Positions 42,816 through 52,464 of a stretch of 64,000 nucleotides of DNA are shown here, one piece after another (the stretch's first letter is position 1; each line of letters opens with the position of its first letter). Both the position numbers and the translations under genes were made by a program. The DNA is from Betaproteobacteria bacterium (lineage in GTDB: Bacteria; Pseudomonadota; Gammaproteobacteria; Burkholderiales; SG8-39), in assembly GCA_016177575.1 (NCBI GenBank), contig JACOVA010000103.1, positions 6,822 through 70,821 on the forward strand. Reading direction: 5' to 3'. The notes under the pieces are model-generated. The model saw only the letters and a list, made by a program, of their open reading frames with translations, did no database searches and was not told where the DNA came from.

Positions 42816-43286
42816 ATGAAGTGCGCAGAAGCGTTGGTCGATCCGCGGACCGCAGTTCGCAGGGCGCGCGGATTCACGCTCATCGAGCTCATGATCGTGA
42901 TCGCGGTGCTGGGGGCGATCATCGCCGCCGCCATCCCGTCCTATCGGCAATACAACATGCGCGCCAACCGCTCGGCGGCGGCGCAGGTCATGCTCAACGT
43001 CCAGAACCGCGAGGAGGCGTACCTGCTGGATGCGCGCGCCTACACCGACGTGCTCGGACCGAGCGGGCTCAACATCATCCAGGACGGCTGGACCTGCTCG
43101 AACACCCCGGCCACGGGCTGCAGCAACAACTTCTATACAGTCACCGTCGCGGTGGTCACCGGCACGCCGCCCACTTACACGGTCACCGCGACCCCGATCG
43201 CCGGCAAGTACCAGGTGGACGACGGCAATCTCACGCTGACGAGCAGCGGCACGCGCTCGCGCAGCGCCGGCGACGGCAAGTGGTAG
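42816..43286 (+). CDS. pilE: type IV minor pilin PilE-like
   Basis: Prepilin leader ending RG|FTLIELMIVIAVLGAIIAAAIPSYRQYNMRANRSAA. The C-terminus YTVTATPIAGKYQVDDGNLTLTSSGTRS parallels P. aeruginosa PilE (from memory). Confidence 0.8.
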   Translation: MKCAEALVDPRTAVRRARGFTLIELMIVIAVLGAIIAAAIPSYRQYNMRANRSAAAQVMLNVQNREEAYLLDARAYTDVLGPSGLNIIQDGWTCSNTPATGCSNNFYTVTVAVVTGTPPTYTVTATPIAGKYQVDDGNLTLTSSGTRSRSAGDGKW

Positions 43287-43290
43287 CGGC

Positions 43291-43815
43291 GTGAGCTTCG
43301 CCCGCAGCCGGCGCGGTTTCACGATCATCGAGCTGATGGTGACGCTCGCGATCGTGGCCGTGCTGGCGATGGCCGCCCTGCCGTCGATGCGCGACCTGGT
43401 GACGAGCAACCGCATGAAGACGCTCTCGCTCGACATCTACACCAGCCTGACGCTCGCGCGCAGCGAGGCGATCAAGCGCAACACCGGCAACATCTCGATG
43501 GTCGAGAAAACCGGCGGCTGGCAGAACGGCTGGACGGTATGCGTCGACGCCGACGCGAACGGCGCCTGCGACGGCGGCGAGATCGTGCTGATCGAGAACG
43601 ATCCCGTCGACCCCTCGCTCTCGCTCACCAACACGGGCGGCAGCATCGTCACCTACGGCCGCGACGGCAGGCTCTCGTCGGCGGCGGCGTCGTTCCGGAT
43701 CATCGCCGGCGCCAACAACGCCGCGGTGCCGATGCGCTGCGTGGAAGTGAACGTGAGCGGGCGGCCTGCGACCCGCGCCGACACCAACGCCACCGACAGC
43801 GACGGATGCAACTGA
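43291..43815 (+). CDS. fimT: GspH/FimT-family minor pilin
   Basis: GTG start. SRRG|FTIIELMVTLAIVAVLAMAALPSMRDLVTSNRMKT..LARSEAIKRN, typical of FimT/FimU. Confidence 0.82.
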   Translation: MSFARSRRGFTIIELMVTLAIVAVLAMAALPSMRDLVTSNRMKTLSLDIYTSLTLARSEAIKRNTGNISMVEKTGGWQNGWTVCVDADANGACDGGEIVLIENDPVDPSLSLTNTGGSIVTYGRDGRLSSAAASFRIIAGANNAAVPMRCVEVNVSGRPATRADTNATDSDGCN

Positions 43816-44444
43816 TGAGGCGCCCGATGCGAGCCCTGCAGGCGAGCCGCGGCTTCAGCCTGATCGAAGTGCTGGTGGCGATCGTCGTCGTCGTGGTAGG
43901 GCTGCTCGGGCTCGCCGGCATGCAGGCGCGCGCCCAGCTGGCGGAGTTCGAGTCCTACCAGCGCGCCCAGGCGCTGGTGCTGCTCTACGACATGATGGAC
44001 CGCATCAACAACAACAAGGCGACCGCCTCCTGCTTCGCAGCCACCACTTCGAGCACGTTCTACGGCGACGCAGGCAACCCGCCGACGCTGTCCTGCAGCG
44101 TCAGCAGCCCGGCCAACAATTCCCTCGCGGTCGGCTCGATGACGCAGTGGCACAACCTGCTGCAGGGCTCCGCCGAGCTGAAAGGGGCCAGTGCCACGCA
44201 GGTCGGCGCGATGATCGGCGCGCGCGGCTGCGTCACCTACGACGTCGCCACCGAGTACATCAACGCGACGACCGGCGTCAACATCGGCGGCACCGGCGAA
44301 TACACCGTCGCGGTCTCCTGGCAGGGGATGGCCGATACCTTCGCGCCGACCAAGACCTGCGGCGGAGCGGCGCAGTACGGCAGCGAAACCAAGCGCCGCA
44401 CCGTGTGGGCGACCATGCGCATCGCGACCCTGGTCGCGCAGTAG
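43815..44444 (+). CDS. pilV: type IV pilus modification protein PilV
   Basis: SRG|FSLIEVLVAIVVVVVGLLGLAGMQARAQ. The ATG overlaps the fimT stop (TGATG). Alternative ATG at 43806. Confidence 0.82.
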   Translation: MRRPMRALQASRGFSLIEVLVAIVVVVVGLLGLAGMQARAQLAEFESYQRAQALVLLYDMMDRINNNKATASCFAATTSSTFYGDAGNPPTLSCSVSSPANNSLAVGSMTQWHNLLQGSAELKGASATQVGAMIGARGCVTYDVATEYINATTGVNIGGTGEYTVAVSWQGMADTFAPTKTCGGAAQYGSETKRRTVWATMRIATLVAQ

Positions 44445-44451
44445 GCGGACG

Positions 44452-45603
44452 ATGAAGACCACCTGCATGCAACGCACCCCGCAAGCCGAGCGCGGCTTCT
44501 CGCTCATCGAGCTGATGACCGCGATCACGATCGGGCTGCTGATCCTGGTCGGCCTGACCTCGGTGTTCGTCAACTCGAGCAATGCGAACCGCGAAATGAA
44601 GAACACCGCCGAGCAGATCGAGAGCGGGCGCTACGCGATCGAGTTCCTGACGCAGGACATCCGGCACGCTGGCTACTACGGCGAGCTCACGACGCTGCCT
44701 GCCGTGCCCGCCAGCGCGCCCGATCCCTGCGCCGCGCCGACGGCGGGCACCGTGAGCAACACCGTCAATCCGGGTCTCACGCTGCCGCTGCAGCGGATTT
44801 CCTCCGCCAGCATCCCCACCGGCTGCGCGTCGCTGCTCACCGCCGCCAACCTCGCGCCCAACAGCGACATCGTGGTGGTGCGCCGCGCCGACACCACCAT
44901 GCTGCCCGTGACGAGCGCCACCACCGCGACGGTCACCACCGGTACGGTGTACATCCAGACCAGCGCGGACACCGCGGAAATCCAGTATGGGGCTGGCGGC
45001 ACCGTCGACAGCACGCAGAAGGCGAGCGGCGCCGCGACGGCTCTGTTCCGCCGCGACTTCACGGTGGCCGCGACCGGAACGCCGCCGCAGTTCCCGATCA
45101 TCGCCGCGGGAATCCGCAAGTACCGGACCCACATCTACTTCGTCGCGCCCTGCAGCGTGCCCAATGGCGGCGGCAGCCTGTGCACCGGCAGCAGCGACGA
45201 CCTGGGCAACCCGATTCCGACCCTGAAGCGGCTCGAGTTCACCGATGGCGGCAGCGGCGCCTTCAGCATCGTGCCGATCGTCGAAGGCATCGAGGCGATC
45301 CGGATCGAATACGGCGTCGACAGCTCGCCCTCGACCGCCGATCCCGGCACCGGCCTGGTGGGCGACGGCATACCAGAGAGCTACAGCAATGCGCCCAGCC
45401 TCGCCGACATGGGCAACACGGTCGCGGCGCGGATCTATGTCCTGGCGCGCAACACTTCGCCGACCCGGGGCTACGTCGACGACAAGGCCTTCGTCATGGG
45501 CTCCCTCACCACGGTCGCGACCGGCGACCCCTACAAGCGCCACGTGTACGGCGGCGAGACGCGCATCGTCAACCAGGCCGGCCGCAGGGAGATCCCGCAG
45601 TGA
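44452..45603 (+). CDS. pilW: type IV pilus assembly protein PilW
   Basis: ERG|FSLIELMTAITIGLLILVGLTSVFVNSS, 383 aa. Position after pilV. Confidence 0.82.
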   Translation: MKTTCMQRTPQAERGFSLIELMTAITIGLLILVGLTSVFVNSSNANREMKNTAEQIESGRYAIEFLTQDIRHAGYYGELTTLPAVPASAPDPCAAPTAGTVSNTVNPGLTLPLQRISSASIPTGCASLLTAANLAPNSDIVVVRRADTTMLPVTSATTATVTTGTVYIQTSADTAEIQYGAGGTVDSTQKASGAATALFRRDFTVAATGTPPQFPIIAAGIRKYRTHIYFVAPCSVPNGGGSLCTGSSDDLGNPIPTLKRLEFTDGGSGAFSIVPIVEGIEAIRIEYGVDSSPSTADPGTGLVGDGIPESYSNAPSLADMGNTVAARIYVLARNTSPTRGYVDDKAFVMGSLTTVATGDPYKRHVYGGETRIVNQAGRREIPQ

Positions 45604-46133
45604 ACGCCAATTCCGTCATCAGGCGGGCGCAGCGGCAGCGCGGCGTCACGCTGCTGGTCTCGCTCATCATGCTGATCGTGCTGACCCTGTTCACGATCAC
45701 GGCGATCCGGACCGGCAACATCGGCTTCAAGATCGTCGGCAACCAGCAGGCGCAGAAGCTGATGGAGGCGGCCGCGCAGCAGGCGGTCGAGCAGGTGATC
45801 AGCAACCTCGCCAACTTCGACCCGACCGCTGTGATCGCGCCTTCGGCCACGGCGGCGCAGCGCGTCTGCGTCAACGCCAGCGCGGGCGACCCGCCGGTCG
45901 CGATTCCGCCCGCCACCTGCACCTCGGGCACCCAGGTGGACGTGTCGCCGGTGCGCTGCATCGCCACCAAGCGCTCGCAGTACGACTCGCTCACGCAGGC
46001 GATGGCGACCTACGACAACGTCTGGGAGATCGTCGCCACGGTGACCGATACGTTCTCGGGCGCCAAGGCGACCTACCACCAGGGGGTCAAGATCCGGATG
46101 CTGTCCAATTCCTGTCCGGGGCTGTCGACCTGA
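45600..46133 (+). CDS. pilX: type IV pilus minor pilin PilX-like
   Basis: The GTG overlaps the pilW stop (GTGA). NANSVIRRAQRQRGVTLLVSLIMLIVLTLFTITAIR (PilX_N-type hydrophobic N-terminus). Position before pilY1. Confidence 0.75.
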   Translation: MNANSVIRRAQRQRGVTLLVSLIMLIVLTLFTITAIRTGNIGFKIVGNQQAQKLMEAAAQQAVEQVISNLANFDPTAVIAPSATAAQRVCVNASAGDPPVAIPPATCTSGTQVDVSPVRCIATKRSQYDSLTQAMATYDNVWEIVATVTDTFSGAKATYHQGVKIRMLSNSCPGLST

Positions 46134-46149
46134 TTTCGGAGCCAGAGCC

Positions 46150-49100
46150 ATGAAACGTGGATTCTCCAGACTGCTGCTCGCCGCTGCGCTCGCGGGCTTC
46201 TGCGCGACGCCGTTCGCCGTGTTCGACCCGGTGAACGACGACACCGACCTGTTCCGCAACAACCCGAACATCCCCTCGGAGCGGCCCAACGTCCTCATCA
46301 TCCTCGACAACACCGCCAACTGGAGCTCGGGCGGCAAGTTCGCGAACGAGAAGACCGCCCTCGTCGACACGGTCGCCGCGCTCGACAGCTCGTTCAACGT
46401 CGGCATGATGGTGATGGGGCAGGGCGGCAACTGCCGCACCGCCAACGTGGACGGCGGCTACGTGCGCTTCGGCGTGCGCCAGATGACCGCGGCCAACAAG
46501 GCCGGCCTCACCAGCCTGGTGAACGGCTTCACCGACGCTTCCTGCGGCAACGACCTGGTCGGCGACCAGGGCAGCTCGGCGACCGGCGCGCAGGCGATGC
46601 ACGAGGCCTACCTCTATTTCGCGGGCCTCACCTCGCGCTCCGGCATCAGGCAGGTCAAGCGCGATTTCACGAGCAACCCGAATAACACGGTTGCGGGGTC
46701 GCTGCCGGACAATCCGCTCTCGAGCAGCTCGGCGACCGTCTATGCCCCCGCGATCGCCGAAGCCTGCCAGAAGAGCTACATCATCTTCATCAGCAACGGG
46801 CCGTTCGACAACGGCGACGACGCGCCCTCGGCCCAGCTGTACGCGGGCGCGAGCGGCCTGGTGCCGGGCGCGACCCCGATCAGCCTGAGCCCGAGCGGCT
46901 CGGAGTCCAACTGGTCGGACGAGTACGCGTTCTACCTCGCCAATACGGGCGTCAATGTGCTCGGCAGCAACCAGAAGATCTTCACCTACACCCTCGACGT
47001 CGACCCGGTAACCACCGGCCAGGGGCCGGCCCACACCGCGCTACTGAAAAGCATGGCGCAGCAGGGCAAGGGCAAGTACTTCGGCGTCACCAGCGCCAAT
47101 TCCGGGACGGCGATCGTGGATGCGCTGCTCTCGATCTTCAGCGAAATCCAGGCGGTGAACAGCGTGTTCGCCGCCTCCACCCTGCCGGTCAGCGTCAACG
47201 TGCGCGGCACCAACCTGAACCAGCTCTACATCGGCGTGTTCCGCCCCGACTCCGCCGACAGGCCGCGCTGGCTCGGCAACCTCAAGGCCTACCAGCTGAA
47301 GAAGGACCCGTCCACCGGCGTGGTGTTCACGGTGGACTCGAACCTCGACCCCGCGATCAACAGCACCACCGGCTTCATCACCGCTTCGGCGATAAGCTTC
47401 TGGACCGACCCGGCGCTGCCGAACGCAACCTACTGGAACTTCCGGCCTTCCTCGGTGAACGGCGTGGGCGGCGACTCCGACAGCCCGGACGGCGACTTGG
47501 TGGAAAAGGGCGGTGCGGCGCAACAGCTGCGCGCGCGCTATTTCGCCGCCGGCATCAACGCGGTGTCGCCGGACCCGTATCGCCCGCTCTACACCTGCAC
47601 CCAGGGGCCGGCCTACCCGGTCTGCAACACGACTTACTCGGCCACTCCGAGCCTGCTGTCGGCGACGCCGTTCGAAGACGCCAACAGCGACATCGACGCG
47701 GGCTCGCTCGCCATTGACGCGCGCGCCGTCACCCCGCTCACCGCATCCCAGGTCAAGCCGATCACGACGCTCAGCGACACGAGGGCGGTGACGCTTGACA
47801 ACACGACGGGTGTGGTGTTCTCGCCCTATTTGATTTCCACCAACAGCGAGGAAAAGAGCGAATTCTCGCTTAATAACGCGCGCACGGTATCCATTAGCAG
47901 CATCAGCAACGGCGCAGTGTCGAACTCTGCGACGTTCACCAAGCAGGGCACCAAGAACCGTGGCACGCTGGCCGGCCACGGCCTGGGCGTCGGGCAGACC
48001 ATCGTCGTCACCGGGACCACCAGCTTCAACACGTCCGGGACCACGATTACCAACGCGACTTCGAGCACCTTCGACTACGGAACCTTCGGCGGCAGCGGCA
48101 ACCCGTCGGAAACGGGCACCGTGACCACGAGCAACATCGTGGTGTTGGTCAACGCGCCGAACCATGGTTTTGCGGACGGCCAGAGCGTGACCATCGCGGG
48201 CGTGACGCCTGCGGCGTTCAACGGCTCGAAGACGATCACCAGGATCGACGACCACAACTTCAGCTTCTCGCACACGGTGTCCACGGGACCGACCGGGACG
48301 ACCATGACGGCGAGCGCGGCGAGCACTGTCGTGACCGCGACGTGGAACGGGGCGGTCGGGACTGCGCCGCTCGGCTACGTCGCCGGGCAGCCGGTCACGG
48401 TCAATAACGCGAACCCCACCACCTACAACGGCACCTACACGGTGCTCTCCAACCCTGCGCCCACGGCGACTACCTTCGCCTACCAGACAACGAGCGCGAT
48501 AACGACGCCGAATTCCAGCACCTCCGTATCCGTGACGACCAGCGGCGCGACGGCAAGCGCATTTTTCTATTCGCCTGGCGTCAACCCGGGTTTCGTCGAC
48601 GGCAATACGGTGTTCATCTCCGGCGCCAGCCCGGCGGGCTTCAACGGCACATTCACGATCTCGAACGTGATCGACTACTCGGTTTCCGCCCTGTTTGGCT
48701 GCCCCTGCCCGGACTACTACAGCTTCGACTACACGGTGCCGACGGGGCTCGGCTTCTTCGCCAGCCAGGCAAGCGGCACGATCCCGATCCAGGTCGCCGG
48801 CGCGACCTCGTCCGTCGTCACGGCGACGCTCGCCAACCACGGCTTCAGTGCATTGGATTCGATCACGATTTCGGGCGCGTCGCCCGTAGATCACAATGGC
48901 AGCTGGAGCGTCGCTGCAGTCGTCGACGCCAATACTTTCCAGTACTCGACCGCCATCGCGCTGGACGCGCCGAGCGGCACCCCGGCCGTGCGCTTCACGA
49001 GCAATCCGCGCGCCTACGCGACGATCACGGGCCACGGCTATGGCGCGACGGGCACCAGCCTCGACCCGTTCATCGTCGCCGGTGCGCTGCCGGCCGGCTA

Positions 49101-51378
49101 CAACGGCACGTTCACGGGAGCGAGCGCGGCGAGGGTGGAAGACACCAACACGGTGAGCTATCCGCTGGCCTCGGCACCGGGAACCTTCGATGCCTCGCAG
49201 ACGATGACCGCGACCACGAATAGCACGACCGCGGTCGGCACCTCCGCCGCGCACGGCTTCGCGGTGGGCGGCAGCATCACCATCTCGGGCGCTGCGCCCT
49301 CCGATTTCAACGGCGCGAAGACGGTGGTCTCGGTGCCGAACGCGGACACCTTCACCTACACCCTGAGCAGCGCGCAGGGCGCGGCGACCGGCACCATCAC
49401 GGCCGTGTCGGCGGGCGGCGCGGGCGCGAGCGAGCGCACCAACGTCATCAACTGGATCCGCGGCGAGGACAACTACGAGGACGAGAACTCGAACTCCTCG
49501 TTCGGCGACACGCGCGCCTCGATGCACGGCGACGTGCTGCATTCGCGCCCGGCCGTGGTCAACTACAACCGCCGCGCGCTGACCGATCCGCCCAACGCCG
49601 ACAACGACGTCTACATCTTCTACGGCGGCAACGACGGCGTGTTCCGCGCCATCAAGGGCGGCTTCGGCAGCACCACCGGCGACCCGGCGATGGGCGTCGA
49701 GGTCTGGGGCTTCGTCGCCAAGGAGCATTTCTCGAGCCTGAAGCGCCTGCGCCTCAATTCGCCCGCCATCAGCAGCACCTACAAGAAGCCCTATTTCTTC
49801 GACGGGCCGATGGGCACCTACACGCTCGACACGAACGCCGACGGCCAGCTCATCGCCACGGACGGCGACAAGGTGTACATCTACCTCACCATGCGGCGCG
49901 GCGGGCGCGCGATCTACGCGCTCGATGTGAGCGATCCGCTGGTGCCGAAGCTGCTCTGGCGCAAGGGCTGCCCGAGCCTGAGCACCAATCCCGCCGACAT
50001 CGACGCCACGACCGGCTGCGACCTGGGCTGGGGCGAGCTCGGCCAGACCTGGTCGGAGCCGAAGGTGGTGTCGATCAATGCGAGCAGTGACCCGGTGCTG
50101 ATCTTCGGCGCCGGCTACGACTCGCTGGTCGAGGACCTCGATCCCGTGACGGTCACCTCCAGCACCGCGTCGGCCGTGGTCGCGGGCGGCACGACCTTCA
50201 CGCGCAGCATGGGTCGCGGGCTCTACGTCGTCAACGCGCAGACCGGCGCCATCATCTGGCAGGCCTCCGGGCACGCGCGCGCCGACAGCAGCACCCATCC
50301 CTACAAGGTGGTGGCGGGAATGGATTACTCGATCCCCTCCGACGTCGCCGTGGTGGTCGGCGATCCTACGCTGAAGCCGTTCCGCGCCTATGTCGGCGAC
50401 ACCGGCGGACAGTTCTGGCGCTTCGACTTCGGCGACGCCTCCCCGGCCAACTGGACGGTGGTCAAGCTCGCCTCGATCGGCGACCCCACGACCACCGCCT
50501 CCATCGAGGACCCGAGAGTGTCGCCACAGACGACGCCGGCAACGATGGTGACGGTGATACCCGGGCTGCGCAAGTTCCTGTTCCCGCCCGATGTCATCGG
50601 CGCGACTGGATTCGACATGGTGATCGCCGGCACGGGCGACCGCGAGCATCCGTTCGATGCCGTGATCACCAACCGCGTCTACGCCTTCAAGGACAAGGTG
50701 CAGACGACCACGCCGCCGGTCGATGGCTCGTCGGTGCCCCTGCAGGCCACGATCACCGAGGGCACCGGCGACGGCAATCCGCTGCTCGACGTCACCTCCA
50801 ACTGCATCCAGGTGCCGGCCAACTGCACCGGCACCGCGCCGCAGCTAGCTGGCGGCGGCCTCACGGCCTCGCAGAACACCGCCAAGGCGCTGACTGAATC
50901 GACCAACTACGGCTGGTACCTGACCCTCGCCGGGGGCGAGAAGCAGGTCGGCGGCACGCTCGCCGCCGGTACCGGGTCGGTCGTGTTCGGCACCAACCAG
51001 CCCTCGGCGAGCGCGGGCGGCGGCGCCTGCAGCCCGAACCTCGGCGTGGCGCGGCAGTACTCGGTGAACTTCGAGAACGGCACCGCGTTCGAGGGTACGA
51101 GCGTCTCGACCGTCTACGCGGGCGGCGGCTACCTGCCTTCGCCGGTGCTGGTCTATGTCGGCCTTGGGGGAACGACCGGCACCGGCTCGGGCACCACCGG
51201 CGGCGTGCCGGTCGGCGGCACGGTCAGCGGCGGACAGCTCGGCATTGGCGCGGGCGCCTCGCTCGGCGGCGGCAACGATCCGACCGGCGTGGTCTGCTAC
51301 GGCGCGTCGTGCGCGCTGGCGCCGGGCAAGCAGCTCTACTCGCGGCTGCGCAAGTTCTGGTACAAGGAAATCGACTGA
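46150..51378 (+). CDS. pilY1: giant PilY1-type type IV pilus tip adhesin (vWA-like N-domain, 7-module repeat insert, PilY1/PilC beta-propeller C-domain)
   Basis: 1742 aa. Signal peptide MKRGFSRLLLAAALAGFCATPFA. vWA-like region PNVLIILDNTANWS...YIIFISNG. C-terminal PilY1 hallmarks HGDVLHSRPAVVNY, IFYGGNDGVFRAI, EVWGFV, RAIYALDVSDP, GQTWSEP, IFGAGYD, YVGDTGGQFWRFDF, GTGDREHP, RVYAFKD. Confidence 0.88.
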   Translation: MKRGFSRLLLAAALAGFCATPFAVFDPVNDDTDLFRNNPNIPSERPNVLIILDNTANWSSGGKFANEKTALVDTVAALDSSFNVGMMVMGQGGNCRTANVDGGYVRFGVRQMTAANKAGLTSLVNGFTDASCGNDLVGDQGSSATGAQAMHEAYLYFAGLTSRSGIRQVKRDFTSNPNNTVAGSLPDNPLSSSSATVYAPAIAEACQKSYIIFISNGPFDNGDDAPSAQLYAGASGLVPGATPISLSPSGSESNWSDEYAFYLANTGVNVLGSNQKIFTYTLDVDPVTTGQGPAHTALLKSMAQQGKGKYFGVTSANSGTAIVDALLSIFSEIQAVNSVFAASTLPVSVNVRGTNLNQLYIGVFRPDSADRPRWLGNLKAYQLKKDPSTGVVFTVDSNLDPAINSTTGFITASAISFWTDPALPNATYWNFRPSSVNGVGGDSDSPDGDLVEKGGAAQQLRARYFAAGINAVSPDPYRPLYTCTQGPAYPVCNTTYSATPSLLSATPFEDANSDIDAGSLAIDARAVTPLTASQVKPITTLSDTRAVTLDNTTGVVFSPYLISTNSEEKSEFSLNNARTVSISSISNGAVSNSATFTKQGTKNRGTLAGHGLGVGQTIVVTGTTSFNTSGTTITNATSSTFDYGTFGGSGNPSETGTVTTSNIVVLVNAPNHGFADGQSVTIAGVTPAAFNGSKTITRIDDHNFSFSHTVSTGPTGTTMTASAASTVVTATWNGAVGTAPLGYVAGQPVTVNNANPTTYNGTYTVLSNPAPTATTFAYQTTSAITTPNSSTSVSVTTSGATASAFFYSPGVNPGFVDGNTVFISGASPAGFNGTFTISNVIDYSVSALFGCPCPDYYSFDYTVPTGLGFFASQASGTIPIQVAGATSSVVTATLANHGFSALDSITISGASPVDHNGSWSVAAVVDANTFQYSTAIALDAPSGTPAVRFTSNPRAYATITGHGYGATGTSLDPFIVAGALPAGYNGTFTGASAARVEDTNTVSYPLASAPGTFDASQTMTATTNSTTAVGTSAAHGFAVGGSITISGAAPSDFNGAKTVVSVPNADTFTYTLSSAQGAATGTITAVSAGGAGASERTNVINWIRGEDNYEDENSNSSFGDTRASMHGDVLHSRPAVVNYNRRALTDPPNADNDVYIFYGGNDGVFRAIKGGFGSTTGDPAMGVEVWGFVAKEHFSSLKRLRLNSPAISSTYKKPYFFDGPMGTYTLDTNADGQLIATDGDKVYIYLTMRRGGRAIYALDVSDPLVPKLLWRKGCPSLSTNPADIDATTGCDLGWGELGQTWSEPKVVSINASSDPVLIFGAGYDSLVEDLDPVTVTSSTASAVVAGGTTFTRSMGRGLYVVNAQTGAIIWQASGHARADSSTHPYKVVAGMDYSIPSDVAVVVGDPTLKPFRAYVGDTGGQFWRFDFGDASPANWTVVKLASIGDPTTTASIEDPRVSPQTTPATMVTVIPGLRKFLFPPDVIGATGFDMVIAGTGDREHPFDAVITNRVYAFKDKVQTTTPPVDGSSVPLQATITEGTGDGNPLLDVTSNCIQVPANCTGTAPQLAGGGLTASQNTAKALTESTNYGWYLTLAGGEKQVGGTLAAGTGSVVFGTNQPSASAGGGACSPNLGVARQYSVNFENGTAFEGTSVSTVYAGGGYLPSPVLVYVGLGGTTGTGSGTTGGVPVGGTVSGGQLGIGAGASLGGGNDPTGVVCYGASCALAPGKQLYSRLRKFWYKEID
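47902..49419 (+). repeat. seven tandem degenerate 65-85 aa protein modules inside pilY1 (aa ~585-1090)
   Basis: Recurring pattern hGF-x-x-G-x-x-[VI]-x-[IV]-x-G-[AV]-x-P-x-x-[FY]NG-x-[FWY/K]-[TS]-[IV]...[TN]-F-x-[FY]. Examples: NHGFADGQSVTIAGVTPAAFNGSKTITRIDDHNFSF; PGFVDGNTVFISGASPAGFNGTFTISNV; NHGFSALDSITISGASPVDHNGSWSVAAVVDANTFQY; AHGFAVGGSITISGAAPSDFNGAKTVVSVPNADTFTY. The repeats are visible at protein level only, not as DNA repeats. Confidence 0.8.
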
Positions 51379-51675: not shown

Positions 51676-52338
51676 GTGGATGCCGCCATGGCGGGGCCTG
51701 CGCCCTGGGAGCGCCTTGCCATCGCGCTCGCGATTTCGGCGAGCGCGCACCTTGCGCTGCTTGCGAACGCCCCGTTCGTGCCCGGCCTGAGCGAGGCGGC
51801 GCTGTTTGCCGGGCGGCCGCTGACGGCACGCATCGCCGCGGCGCCGGCCGATTCGGCGCCGCAGATCCCGGAGCCGGAGTCGCAGCAGCAGCGGCAGCCC
51901 GAGCCGCTGCCGCAGACCCCGCCCGAGGCCGCTGCCGAGCCGTCGCGCGCCGAGGCGCAGGCGAGCGCCGCGGGCTTGCCCGCGCCGGAGATCTTCTACC
52001 GCGGCAGCGAGGTCGACGAGCGCGCGGTCGCGACCAACACCCCGGACATCGAGTATCCCGAGCGCGCGTTCGCCGCTGGCACCTCCGGCACGGTCAGGCT
52101 GCGGCTCGTGATCGACCACCGCGGGGTGCTGCGCGAGGCGAGCGTGCTGGCGGCGGCGCCAGCGGGAGTATTCGAGGAGGCGGCGCTCAAGGCGGCGCGC
52201 TCGCTGAGATTCAGGCCGGCGATACGCAACGGCGTCGCGGTCGGCAGCATCAAGCTGATCGAAGTGCCCTTCGATCCGGACTGCATGCGCACCGGCAGCT
52301 GCATCCCGGAGGCGGGCGGCGCGAAGGCGAAGCCCTGA
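51676..52338 (+). CDS. TonB C-terminal domain protein (energy transducer TonB-like)
   Basis: N-terminal anchor LAIALAISASAHLALL, Pro/Glu/Gln-rich spacer, TonB-C domain IEYPERAFAAGTSGTVRLRLVIDHRGVLREASVL...FEEAALKAARSLRFRPA. GTG start at 51676, or ATG at 51688. Confidence 0.78.
   Translation: MDAAMAGPAPWERLAIALAISASAHLALLANAPFVPGLSEAALFAGRPLTARIAAAPADSAPQIPEPESQQQRQPEPLPQTPPEAAAEPSRAEAQASAAGLPAPEIFYRGSEVDERAVATNTPDIEYPERAFAAGTSGTVRLRLVIDHRGVLREASVLAAAPAGVFEEAALKAARSLRFRPAIRNGVAVGSIKLIEVPFDPDCMRTGSCIPEAGGAKAKP

Positions 52339-52388: not shown

Positions 52389-52464
<76 letters not shown>

Follow-up and report, generated by a model that had tools for sequence, protein, structure and literature searches.

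What lies in the middle of an unusually long type IV pilus tip protein, and what might it do there? PilY1 is the tip adhesin of type IV pili and a proposed mechanosensor. Here, we analyse a pilY1 gene carried on a 64,000-nucleotide stretch of contig JACOVA010000103.1 from a Betaproteobacteria bacterium (that whole stretch is called the window), in which a single forward-strand open reading frame (ORF), 46150..51378, encodes a protein of 1742 amino acids (aa). A preliminary description of this DNA had read the product as a PilY1 with an array of seven FCCH-like mini-barrel modules at positions 47902-49419 (aa 585-1090), inserted between a vWA domain and the beta-propeller. The question bears on how the variable part of PilY1 sets the adhesion target of the pilus and its force sensing. 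We confirm the array and its insertion, redefine its nearest structural relatives, and propose, with evenly balanced confidence, that the insert is a stalk of seven small beta-barrels of the End_beta_barrel / E1_FCCH superfamily, which stands between head and propeller, holds the head off the pilus tip and possibly binds glycans.

Seven diverged repeats in tandem

The seven-unit repeat array is confirmed by two HMM-based tests. Seven tandem, diverged units (R1 to R7, Table 1), each 62-88 aa long, fill aa 596-1088 back to back, with gaps of 0-6 residues between successive modules. When a hidden Markov model (HMM) made from six of the units was used to score the seventh, with 500 composition-preserving shuffles as the control, the real units scored 15.7 bits (R1) or 36-56 bits (R2-R7) against 5-13 bits for the best shuffles (z 9.5-32). 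An HMM made from the repeats of orthologues only (window excluded) finds exactly seven modules in the ORF (E 8.5e-8 to 1.5e-23) and none in the other frames across the window's 64 kb. The repeat pattern is ..T.T(A)..HGF..G..VTI.GA.P..FNG..T......D.TF.Y. The preliminary description was therefore right about a 1742-aa protein with seven tandem diverged modules, but its consensus, said to be shared by all of them, is met in strict form by only four of the seven units, as R5 and R6 deviate from it and R1 is degenerate. R4 is extended by a loop of ~20 aa that holds a C-P-C motif, SALFGCPCPDYY, at aa 846-857 (48685-48720); the only two Cys of the array are in this loop, and many orthologues lack it (gap fraction 0.31 over aa 851-900).

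The array is also old, as had been supposed, because it lacks repetition at the DNA level and because orthologues at only 40% identity have the same seven modules in the same position. Tandem Repeats Finder reported no DNA array with a period near 200 nucleotides (nt), and the direct repeats in the array are only stretches of 72 nt or less, 60-78% identical, over the HGF...FNG motif. With no tandem repeat in the DNA and seven modules in orthologues at this distance, a recent duplication or an assembly artefact is ruled out.

Insert boundaries and natural variants

Natural relatives without the array define its boundaries. Our one-genome-per-species scan yielded 420 loci with PilY1 relatives, of which 79 were fetched, giving 58 complete genes. 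A long form, with seven modules in the 484-618 aa between N-domain and propeller, accounts for 49 of the 58. A mid form has about five modules in 395-453 aa (L065-L068, L071, L073, L076, L078), and an insert-less form of 1052-1121 aa has 35 aa or less at this place and no modules (L056, L057, L064, L069, L074, L075, L079). The insert-less protein of L057 (chromosome CP070643.1, 1052 aa), whose gene lies in an operon of the same kind as the window pilY1, aligns to aa 1-530 (48.6% identity) and aa 1083-1687 (44%) of the window protein, and the alignment of L079 behaves in the same way. Because the head and propeller blocks of L057 abut without intervening residues, the array region is a true insert, aa ~531-1082, made up of the seven modules and a 65-aa lead-in, and the proposal that an extra segment had been inserted between the N-terminal domain and the propeller is thus upheld. 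Module number (0, about 5 or 7) goes with lineage. In a neighbour-joining tree of the N- and C-terminal domains, which is rough and indicative only, the seven-module proteins make up a single large clade, to which neither the five-module nor the insert-less proteins belong; one of the insert-less proteins falls within the five-module group.

The lead-in (aa 531-595), missing from L057 and L079, is 35% Ser+Thr and is modelled by AlphaFold2 as long beta-hairpin strands with a predicted local distance difference test (pLDDT) score above 90. Its orthologue consensus shows a short period of ~10 aa, 'V.SL.N'.

Fold and relatives of the module

Which known domain does the module resemble? AlphaFold2, given an orthologue alignment of 46 rows, models aa 560-1110 (551 residues) with good confidence as an all-beta chain of small barrels (mean pLDDT 87.9; predicted template modelling score, pTM, 0.53). 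When R7 is modelled by itself, the result is a barrel of five strands whose short turn falls at P..FNG (pLDDT 85.9, pTM 0.69). The modelled R7, compared with the Protein Data Bank (PDB) by Foldseek using query-normalised template modelling (TM) scores, is superposable on the endosialidase beta-barrel, both in 4hiz (TM 0.66-0.69, 28-30% identity, probability 1.00) and in 3gvk_A (TM 0.70, 27% identity, root-mean-square deviation 2.4 Å over 63 columns, probability 1.00). Other matches are to the N-terminal barrels of V1/F1-ATPase (TM about 0.6, 5-15% identity), to the P22 coat I-domain (TM 0.52, 21% identity) and to the FCCH domains of the E1 enzymes UBA1 and UBA6 (TM 0.41-0.53, 12-18% identity, probability 0.25-0.54). 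The whole 551-residue array as the query gave mostly uninformative matches of low TM, along with local matches to E1 FCCH at probability 0.94-0.99. Its top match was Chlamydomonas FMG1B (9gos), which, like the array, is a surface protein of many small beta domains; with E 1.9e-5 but TM 0.09 this is a loose likeness only.

Sequence comparison leads to the same relatives. The phi92 endosialidase 4HIZ is matched at E 0.0016 with the insert and at E 1.9e-4 with the family profile, and the K1F endosialidase endoNF at E 0.057 with an R7 profile. That R7 profile, searched against PDB sequences, returned only endosialidases at E up to 10, and no E1, so that a direct sequence link to eukaryotic E1 in the PDB is rejected. 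In Pfam, E1_FCCH (PF16190) scores 18.3 bits with the whole protein and 23.8 bits with the insert alone, against a gathering threshold of 29.5, and matches one of the seven modules (R2). End_beta_barrel (PF12195) scores 19.8 bits with the insert, against a gathering threshold of 35, and matches two of the seven (R5 and R7, 19-20 bits; best E 8.4e-5). Both families are therefore seen, each below its gathering threshold, and the window copies miss these curated thresholds through divergence.

Beyond PilY1 the module is abundant. A module profile run against 1.84 billion cluster representatives found 7,911 proteins at E up to 1e-3, the carriers typically holding 3-19 copies in proteins of 200-6,500 aa, with E down to 1e-263. 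The carriers that were sampled score above the E1_FCCH threshold over those same residues (P0122, 102 bits; P0121, 61.8; P0129, 61.2), and some also contain PA14, GLEYA, Lamin-tail, CotH or Ig-like domains. Predicted viral structures match the module at TM 0.7-0.8 and 30-40% identity in tail fibres, baseplate J, tip attachment protein J, tail sheath decorations and tailspikes, and in PHROG the insert is matched to families of virion structural proteins (E 4e-19 to 3e-5). Because carriers found by the module profile pass PF16190 at the same residues, the module is a bacterial/phage branch of Pfam E1_FCCH, with the endosialidase barrel as its nearest solved relative and the eukaryotic FCCH further off. 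The earlier label of FCCH-like thus stands for the superfamily and the small beta-barrel, and the barrel is indeed common in phage proteins, but the closest solved structure is that of the endosialidases and not of E1.

One further carrier, P0126 (1020 aa), has six to seven modules from residue ~31 followed by a PilY1 propeller (T4P_PilY1, 38 bits), and no head; it is either a cut-off gene call or a head-less form of PilY1.

Distribution and conservation

Bar one fragment, the 120 best protein clusters are 1587-1818 aa long and align at about 100% coverage. The closest relative among them is 79% identical, and the exact sequence had no counterpart in the public assemblies searched. An HMM made from the window repeats detects 6-7 modules in 114 of the 120, and about half already bear precomputed PF16190 and/or PF12195 matches. 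The carriers are almost all metagenome-assembled genomes (MAGs), from Burkholderiales and other Betaproteobacteria, Gammaproteobacteria and Magnetococcales. Since the seven-module form recurs in dozens of MAGs and over 110 clusters, the idea of a feature unique to the window genome is rejected. Some records (L013, L021, L028, L039, L041, L065 and L073) are labelled Streptomycetaceae, Enterobacteriaceae or Bordetella parapertussis, and these labels look unreliable.

Among orthologues, column identity is 25-48% in the array compared with 55-74% in the flanking domains. The array also differs in composition, D/E/K/R amounting to 5.7% against about 15% and Ser/Thr to 29% against 18%, a bias that holds in 113 orthologues too. 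The repeats keep part of their positional identity, in that repeat i of the window best matches repeat i of an orthologue in 198 of 462 cases, where 66 are expected by chance.

Has this arrangement been described before? We found no paper that joins PilY1 with FCCH, or PilY1 with a tandem repeat or stalk. A 2026 survey recognises only vWFA and DUF4114 domains outside the PilY1 propeller, and it mentions neither FCCH nor barrels nor tandem repeats (PMC13190605). The "new PilY1 architecture" of the preliminary description is accordingly new to the literature that we found, but it is widespread in metagenome-derived genomes, and many orthologues have precomputed PF16190/PF12195 matches; it is common in nature and visible to automated annotation, yet undescribed.

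The gene, its other domains and its neighbourhood

We identify the protein as PilY1 because of its operon context, the profile match of its propeller and the names given to its orthologues. The T4P_PilY1 family (PF05567) scores 24.1 bits (E 2e-5) on the C-terminal 653 aa, under its gathering threshold of 28.1, and NCBIfam T4_PilC_Neiss matches the window protein at E 6e-4. Single-sequence searches of the PDB with the N- and C-terminal domains found nothing; the C-terminal structure of Pseudomonas aeruginosa PilY1, 3HX6, was reached only with a profile from 46 family members, at E 2.3e-15. On these sequence comparisons the C-terminal domain is judged homologous to the PilY1 propeller. It includes a candidate calcium-binding loop whose D1227 and D1240 are nearly invariant among the 46 family members, and which may resemble the EF-hand-like motif of PilY1.

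The head is more difficult to place. As a single sequence, the window head domain has no match in Pfam or among PDB sequences, and a profile of the N-domain found no vWA structure in the PDB. Six of 35 orthologous N-domains match Pfam VWA (PF00092) weakly (best E 1.1e-4), and a beta-strand is followed by D53-N-T55-A-N57 at the place of the metal ion-dependent adhesion site, degenerate with respect to DxSxS...T...D, with D53 and N57 invariant in orthologues. A vWA-like fold of the head is plausible from these features, and the original designation of a vWA domain is kept here only in that weakened form.

The gene is the last of a pilin cluster, separated by 16 nt from the PilX-position ORF. GspH, N_methyl and PilW matches in four upstream ORFs place it with fimT/U-pilV-pilW-pilX minor pilins; the PilX-position ORF (45600-46133) itself has zero Pfam matches at E up to 0.1. 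The product of the first gene of the cluster (42816-43286) matches ComP_DUS, the family of the Neisseria minor pilin that serves as receptor for the DNA uptake sequence. A Pfam scan of neighbouring ORFs found no pilE-like gene 3' of pilY1 in the cluster. Upstream of the pilins lie ileS-lspA-...-ispH, and downstream of pilY1 are a TonB_C ORF (51676-52338), a tRNA-Thr (CGT) gene (52389-52464, forward strand) and a response regulator, so the cluster is flanked by ispH on one side and a tRNA gene on the other. An antisense ORF (47041-50649, reverse strand, 1202 aa), Arg/Gly/Ala-rich and unsupported, is dismissed as a high-GC artefact. The GC fraction is 0.65-0.67 over 46000-49000 (the 5' half of pilY1 plus the array) compared with 0.69-0.73 in flanking genes, which could reflect either the Ser/Thr-rich composition or a foreign origin.

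Table 1. Features of the pilY1 locus, in window positions
Feature	Position	Strand	Evidence or remark
Pilin-like gene, head of cluster	42816..43286	+	Pfam N_methyl 33.2 bits, ComP_DUS 47.5 bits
FimT/FimU-type minor pilin	43291..43815	+	Pfam GspH 63.2 bits, N_methyl 34 bits
PilV-position minor pilin	43815..44444	+	N_methyl 26.6 bits; weak Tt1218-like match; gene order
PilW minor pilin	44452..45603	+	Pfam PilW 55.6 bits, N_methyl 24.3 bits
PilX-position ORF, 177 aa	45600..46133	+	Gene order and hydrophobic N-terminus only
pilY1, 1742 aa	46150..51378	+	Stop codon included; orthologues JGI-named 'Tfp pilus tip-associated adhesin PilY1'; 3HX6 profile match
Probable signal peptide, MKRGFSRLLLAAALAGFCATPFAVF	46150..46224	+	Read from the sequence by eye
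N-terminal head domain, aa 26-530	46225..47739	+	Kept in insert-less relatives; vWA-like at best
Lead-in, aa 531-595	47740..47934	+	Ser/Thr-rich beta-hairpin region, part of insert
R1, aa 596-660	47935..48129	+	Most degenerate; leave-one-out 15.7 bits (shuffle maximum 8.5)
R2, aa 661-725	48130..48324	+	Leave-one-out 41.0 bits; sub-threshold E1_FCCH match at aa 662-711
R3, aa 726-797	48325..48540	+	Leave-one-out 36.4 bits
R4, aa 798-885	48541..48804	+	Lineage-specific extra loop; leave-one-out 38.2 bits
R5, aa 886-952	48805..49005	+	Leave-one-out 56.3 bits; End_beta_barrel E 0.0014
R6, aa 953-1023	49006..49218	+	Leave-one-out 40.9 bits
R7, aa 1024-1088	49219..49413	+	Best conserved, adjoins propeller; leave-one-out 56.2 bits
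PilY1 beta-propeller domain, aa 1089-1742	49414..51375	+	Pfam T4P_PilY1 and 3HX6 profile match
Candidate calcium-binding loop, D-T-N-A-D-G-x6-D-G-D, aa 1227-1240	49828..49869	+	Sequence motif

A proposed stalk at the pilus tip

In light of this architecture, what might the array do? According to published models of the tip, PilX joins the propeller to the minor pilins through strand complementation, and the N-terminal part of PilY1 faces outward and adheres, with force sensing in P. aeruginosa (in part after PMC13190605). Given docking of the propeller on the minor pilins, the array would stand in series between pilus and head. We infer that it would form a thin, charge-poor, Ser/Thr-rich rod that puts the head ~15-20 nm past the pilus tip, the reach being an estimate from typical domain size for seven barrels of ~65 residues, if extended. 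In the model, a single strand runs unbroken across four of the six module junctions (aa 720-732, 793-807, 881-893 and 1020-1031), and these junctions, together with the gaps of 0-6 residues, point to a stiff rod and not to beads on flexible linkers. More generally, the modules abut, share strands, have this composition and are less conserved than their neighbours, features that suit an extracellular stalk more than they suit a globular domain or a flexible tether. A closed seven-membered ring is unlikely, given that modules number about five in a sister group and that, in the model, neighbouring barrels are joined by straight strands common to both.

Several points weigh against the stalk. The array model reaches a pTM of only 0.53, so that an extended geometry is not established over a folded-back one. 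A pure spacer should vary freely in copy number, yet the number is fixed at seven within a large clade. The partial positional identity of the repeats hints, at the level of sequence, at module-specific roles. Finally, the endosialidase barrel, the closest solved relative, is said to have been described by Stummeyer in 2005 and by Schulz in 2010 as a lectin-like, sialic-acid-binding domain, which favours binding over spacing.

The main rival is accordingly that the modules primarily bind ligands, seven lectin-like barrels giving the tip multivalent affinity for polysaccharide as in phage tail fibres and tailspikes; we regard it as a serious possibility, though on balance an unlikely one. The ligand might be the organism's own or foreign exopolysaccharide, a host or prey surface, or particulate organic matter. 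The best relatives in both structure and sequence are endosialidase beta-barrels, which reportedly hold a sialic-acid site. Phage receptor-binding and virion proteins often contain the module, giant bacterial proteins pair it with the carbohydrate-binding domains PA14 and GLEYA, and the repeats partly keep their identities across orthologues. However, the positions that are conserved (HGF, G, V/I, G..P..FNG, F.Y) look like core and turn positions, common to the intracellular E1 FCCH, and unlike a ligand site; surface positions are poorly conserved among orthologues and the array offers few charged or aromatic surface candidates. Stalk and binding could also be combined. As the nearest relatives are a tailspike domain of lectin-like type and modules exposed on phages and in adhesins, weak, multivalent glycan binding along the stalk is itself a serious possibility, and the array would add a long surface that may contact polysaccharide weakly and multivalently.

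It is also conceivable, by analogy with tandem Ig repeats of other adhesins, that the array is a mechanical element in series between the surface-bound head and the retracting pilus, which would unfold or stiffen under load and so buffer or tune the force on the mechanosensitive head. The topology does place the array in the line of force from head to propeller, as tandem small beta domains without linkers, and Webster and colleagues are said to have proposed in 2022 that the vWA domain of P. aeruginosa PilY1 is a force sensor. We nonetheless consider this function improbable: the modules have no stabilising disulfides, the only Cys pair being that of the R4 loop, which is lineage-specific, they showed no signature of the isopeptide type, and insert-less relatives in the same subfamily show that the element is dispensable for the core function of PilY1.

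That the array is a neutral expansion from a phage or adhesin gene, tolerated and kept as harmless, is very improbable: insert-less and ~five-module forms do occur within the same PilY1 subfamily and no other part of the protein is so poorly conserved, but more than 110 clusters, with identities as low as 40% and spread over Betaproteobacteria, Gammaproteobacteria and Magnetococcales, keep seven in-frame, confidently foldable modules at this one place. The compositional bias is retained as well, and there is no DNA repeat able to drive recent expansion.

The stalk thus remains the reading that we favour, and from it a bolder version can be drawn, which we put forward tentatively and hold to be rather doubtful. 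A phage-type receptor-binding module may have been co-opted by PilY1 in a large environmental clade of Proteobacteria, where the fixed seven-unit rod would itself be an adhesin or force-bearing element that sets which polysaccharide is bound and how tension is transferred, the number of modules (0, 5 or 7) tuning reach and specificity. If true, this would make such proteins a distinct modular class of pilus tip.

Significance

The general picture of PilY1 does not change, since its modularity was already known and tandem beta-domain stalks are common in adhesins. What is added is a third solution beside vWFA and DUF4114, itself widespread, namely phage-type small barrels set in a fixed array that separates head from propeller; it connects the tips of pili with the set of modules that phage tail fibres draw on. 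The natural variants with 0, ~5 and 7 modules in one subfamily, for which nature has supplied the deletion boundaries, are suited to tests of tip reach, of multivalent glycan binding and of in-series mechanics. The finding would carry greater weight should the array prove to be a ligand-binding or force-bearing element of the tip.

Comparison with known systems

The module itself has three sets of relatives. It is like the barrel of the phage endosialidases (K1F endoNF, 1V0E/3GVK; phi92, 4HIZ) in its motif, HG[LF]xxGDxVxF...G...V..V...D.FT, and in its modelled fold (TM 0.66-0.70), but there a single copy is inserted in the sialidase propeller of a tailspike, whereas the window has seven tandem copies in a pilus protein. 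With the eukaryotic E1 FCCH (UBA1, UBA6) it shares the HGF..G..V motif and a small beta-barrel; that domain, however, is a single one in an intracellular enzyme and compares with a single module at a TM of only 0.41-0.53, while the Pfam E1_FCCH family already takes in bacterial and phage modules above its threshold. The arrays of giant surface proteins and phage virions (P0121, P0122; PHROG 9998, 701 and 5838) are built of the same module, in tandem and exposed, with partner domains of the adhesin type, but unlike the window PilY1 none of these carriers is a pilus component. Exposure is also seen in the FCCH decoration domain of the siphovirus tail tube, which points outward on tail tubes (PMC13576161).

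Among pilus proteins, the window PilY1 resembles P. aeruginosa PilY1 (PA4554) and the PilC proteins of Neisseria and Kingella in its operon place after fimU-pilV-pilW-pilX, its homologous propeller and its variable head. It differs from them in a propeller that, by itself, is too diverged to reach the PF05567 threshold (24.1 against 28.1 bits). According to PMC13190605, the characterised PilY1 and PilC proteins, so far as published, have no domain between head and propeller, where the window protein has its ~550-aa array. The same survey offers a parallel in PilY1.1 and PilY1.2 of Myxococcus xanthus, in which the propeller is kept and the rest varied, presumably changing tip adhesion; there, the added domain is an N-terminal DUF4114 (PMC13190605), and not, as in the window protein, a tandem array set between head and propeller.

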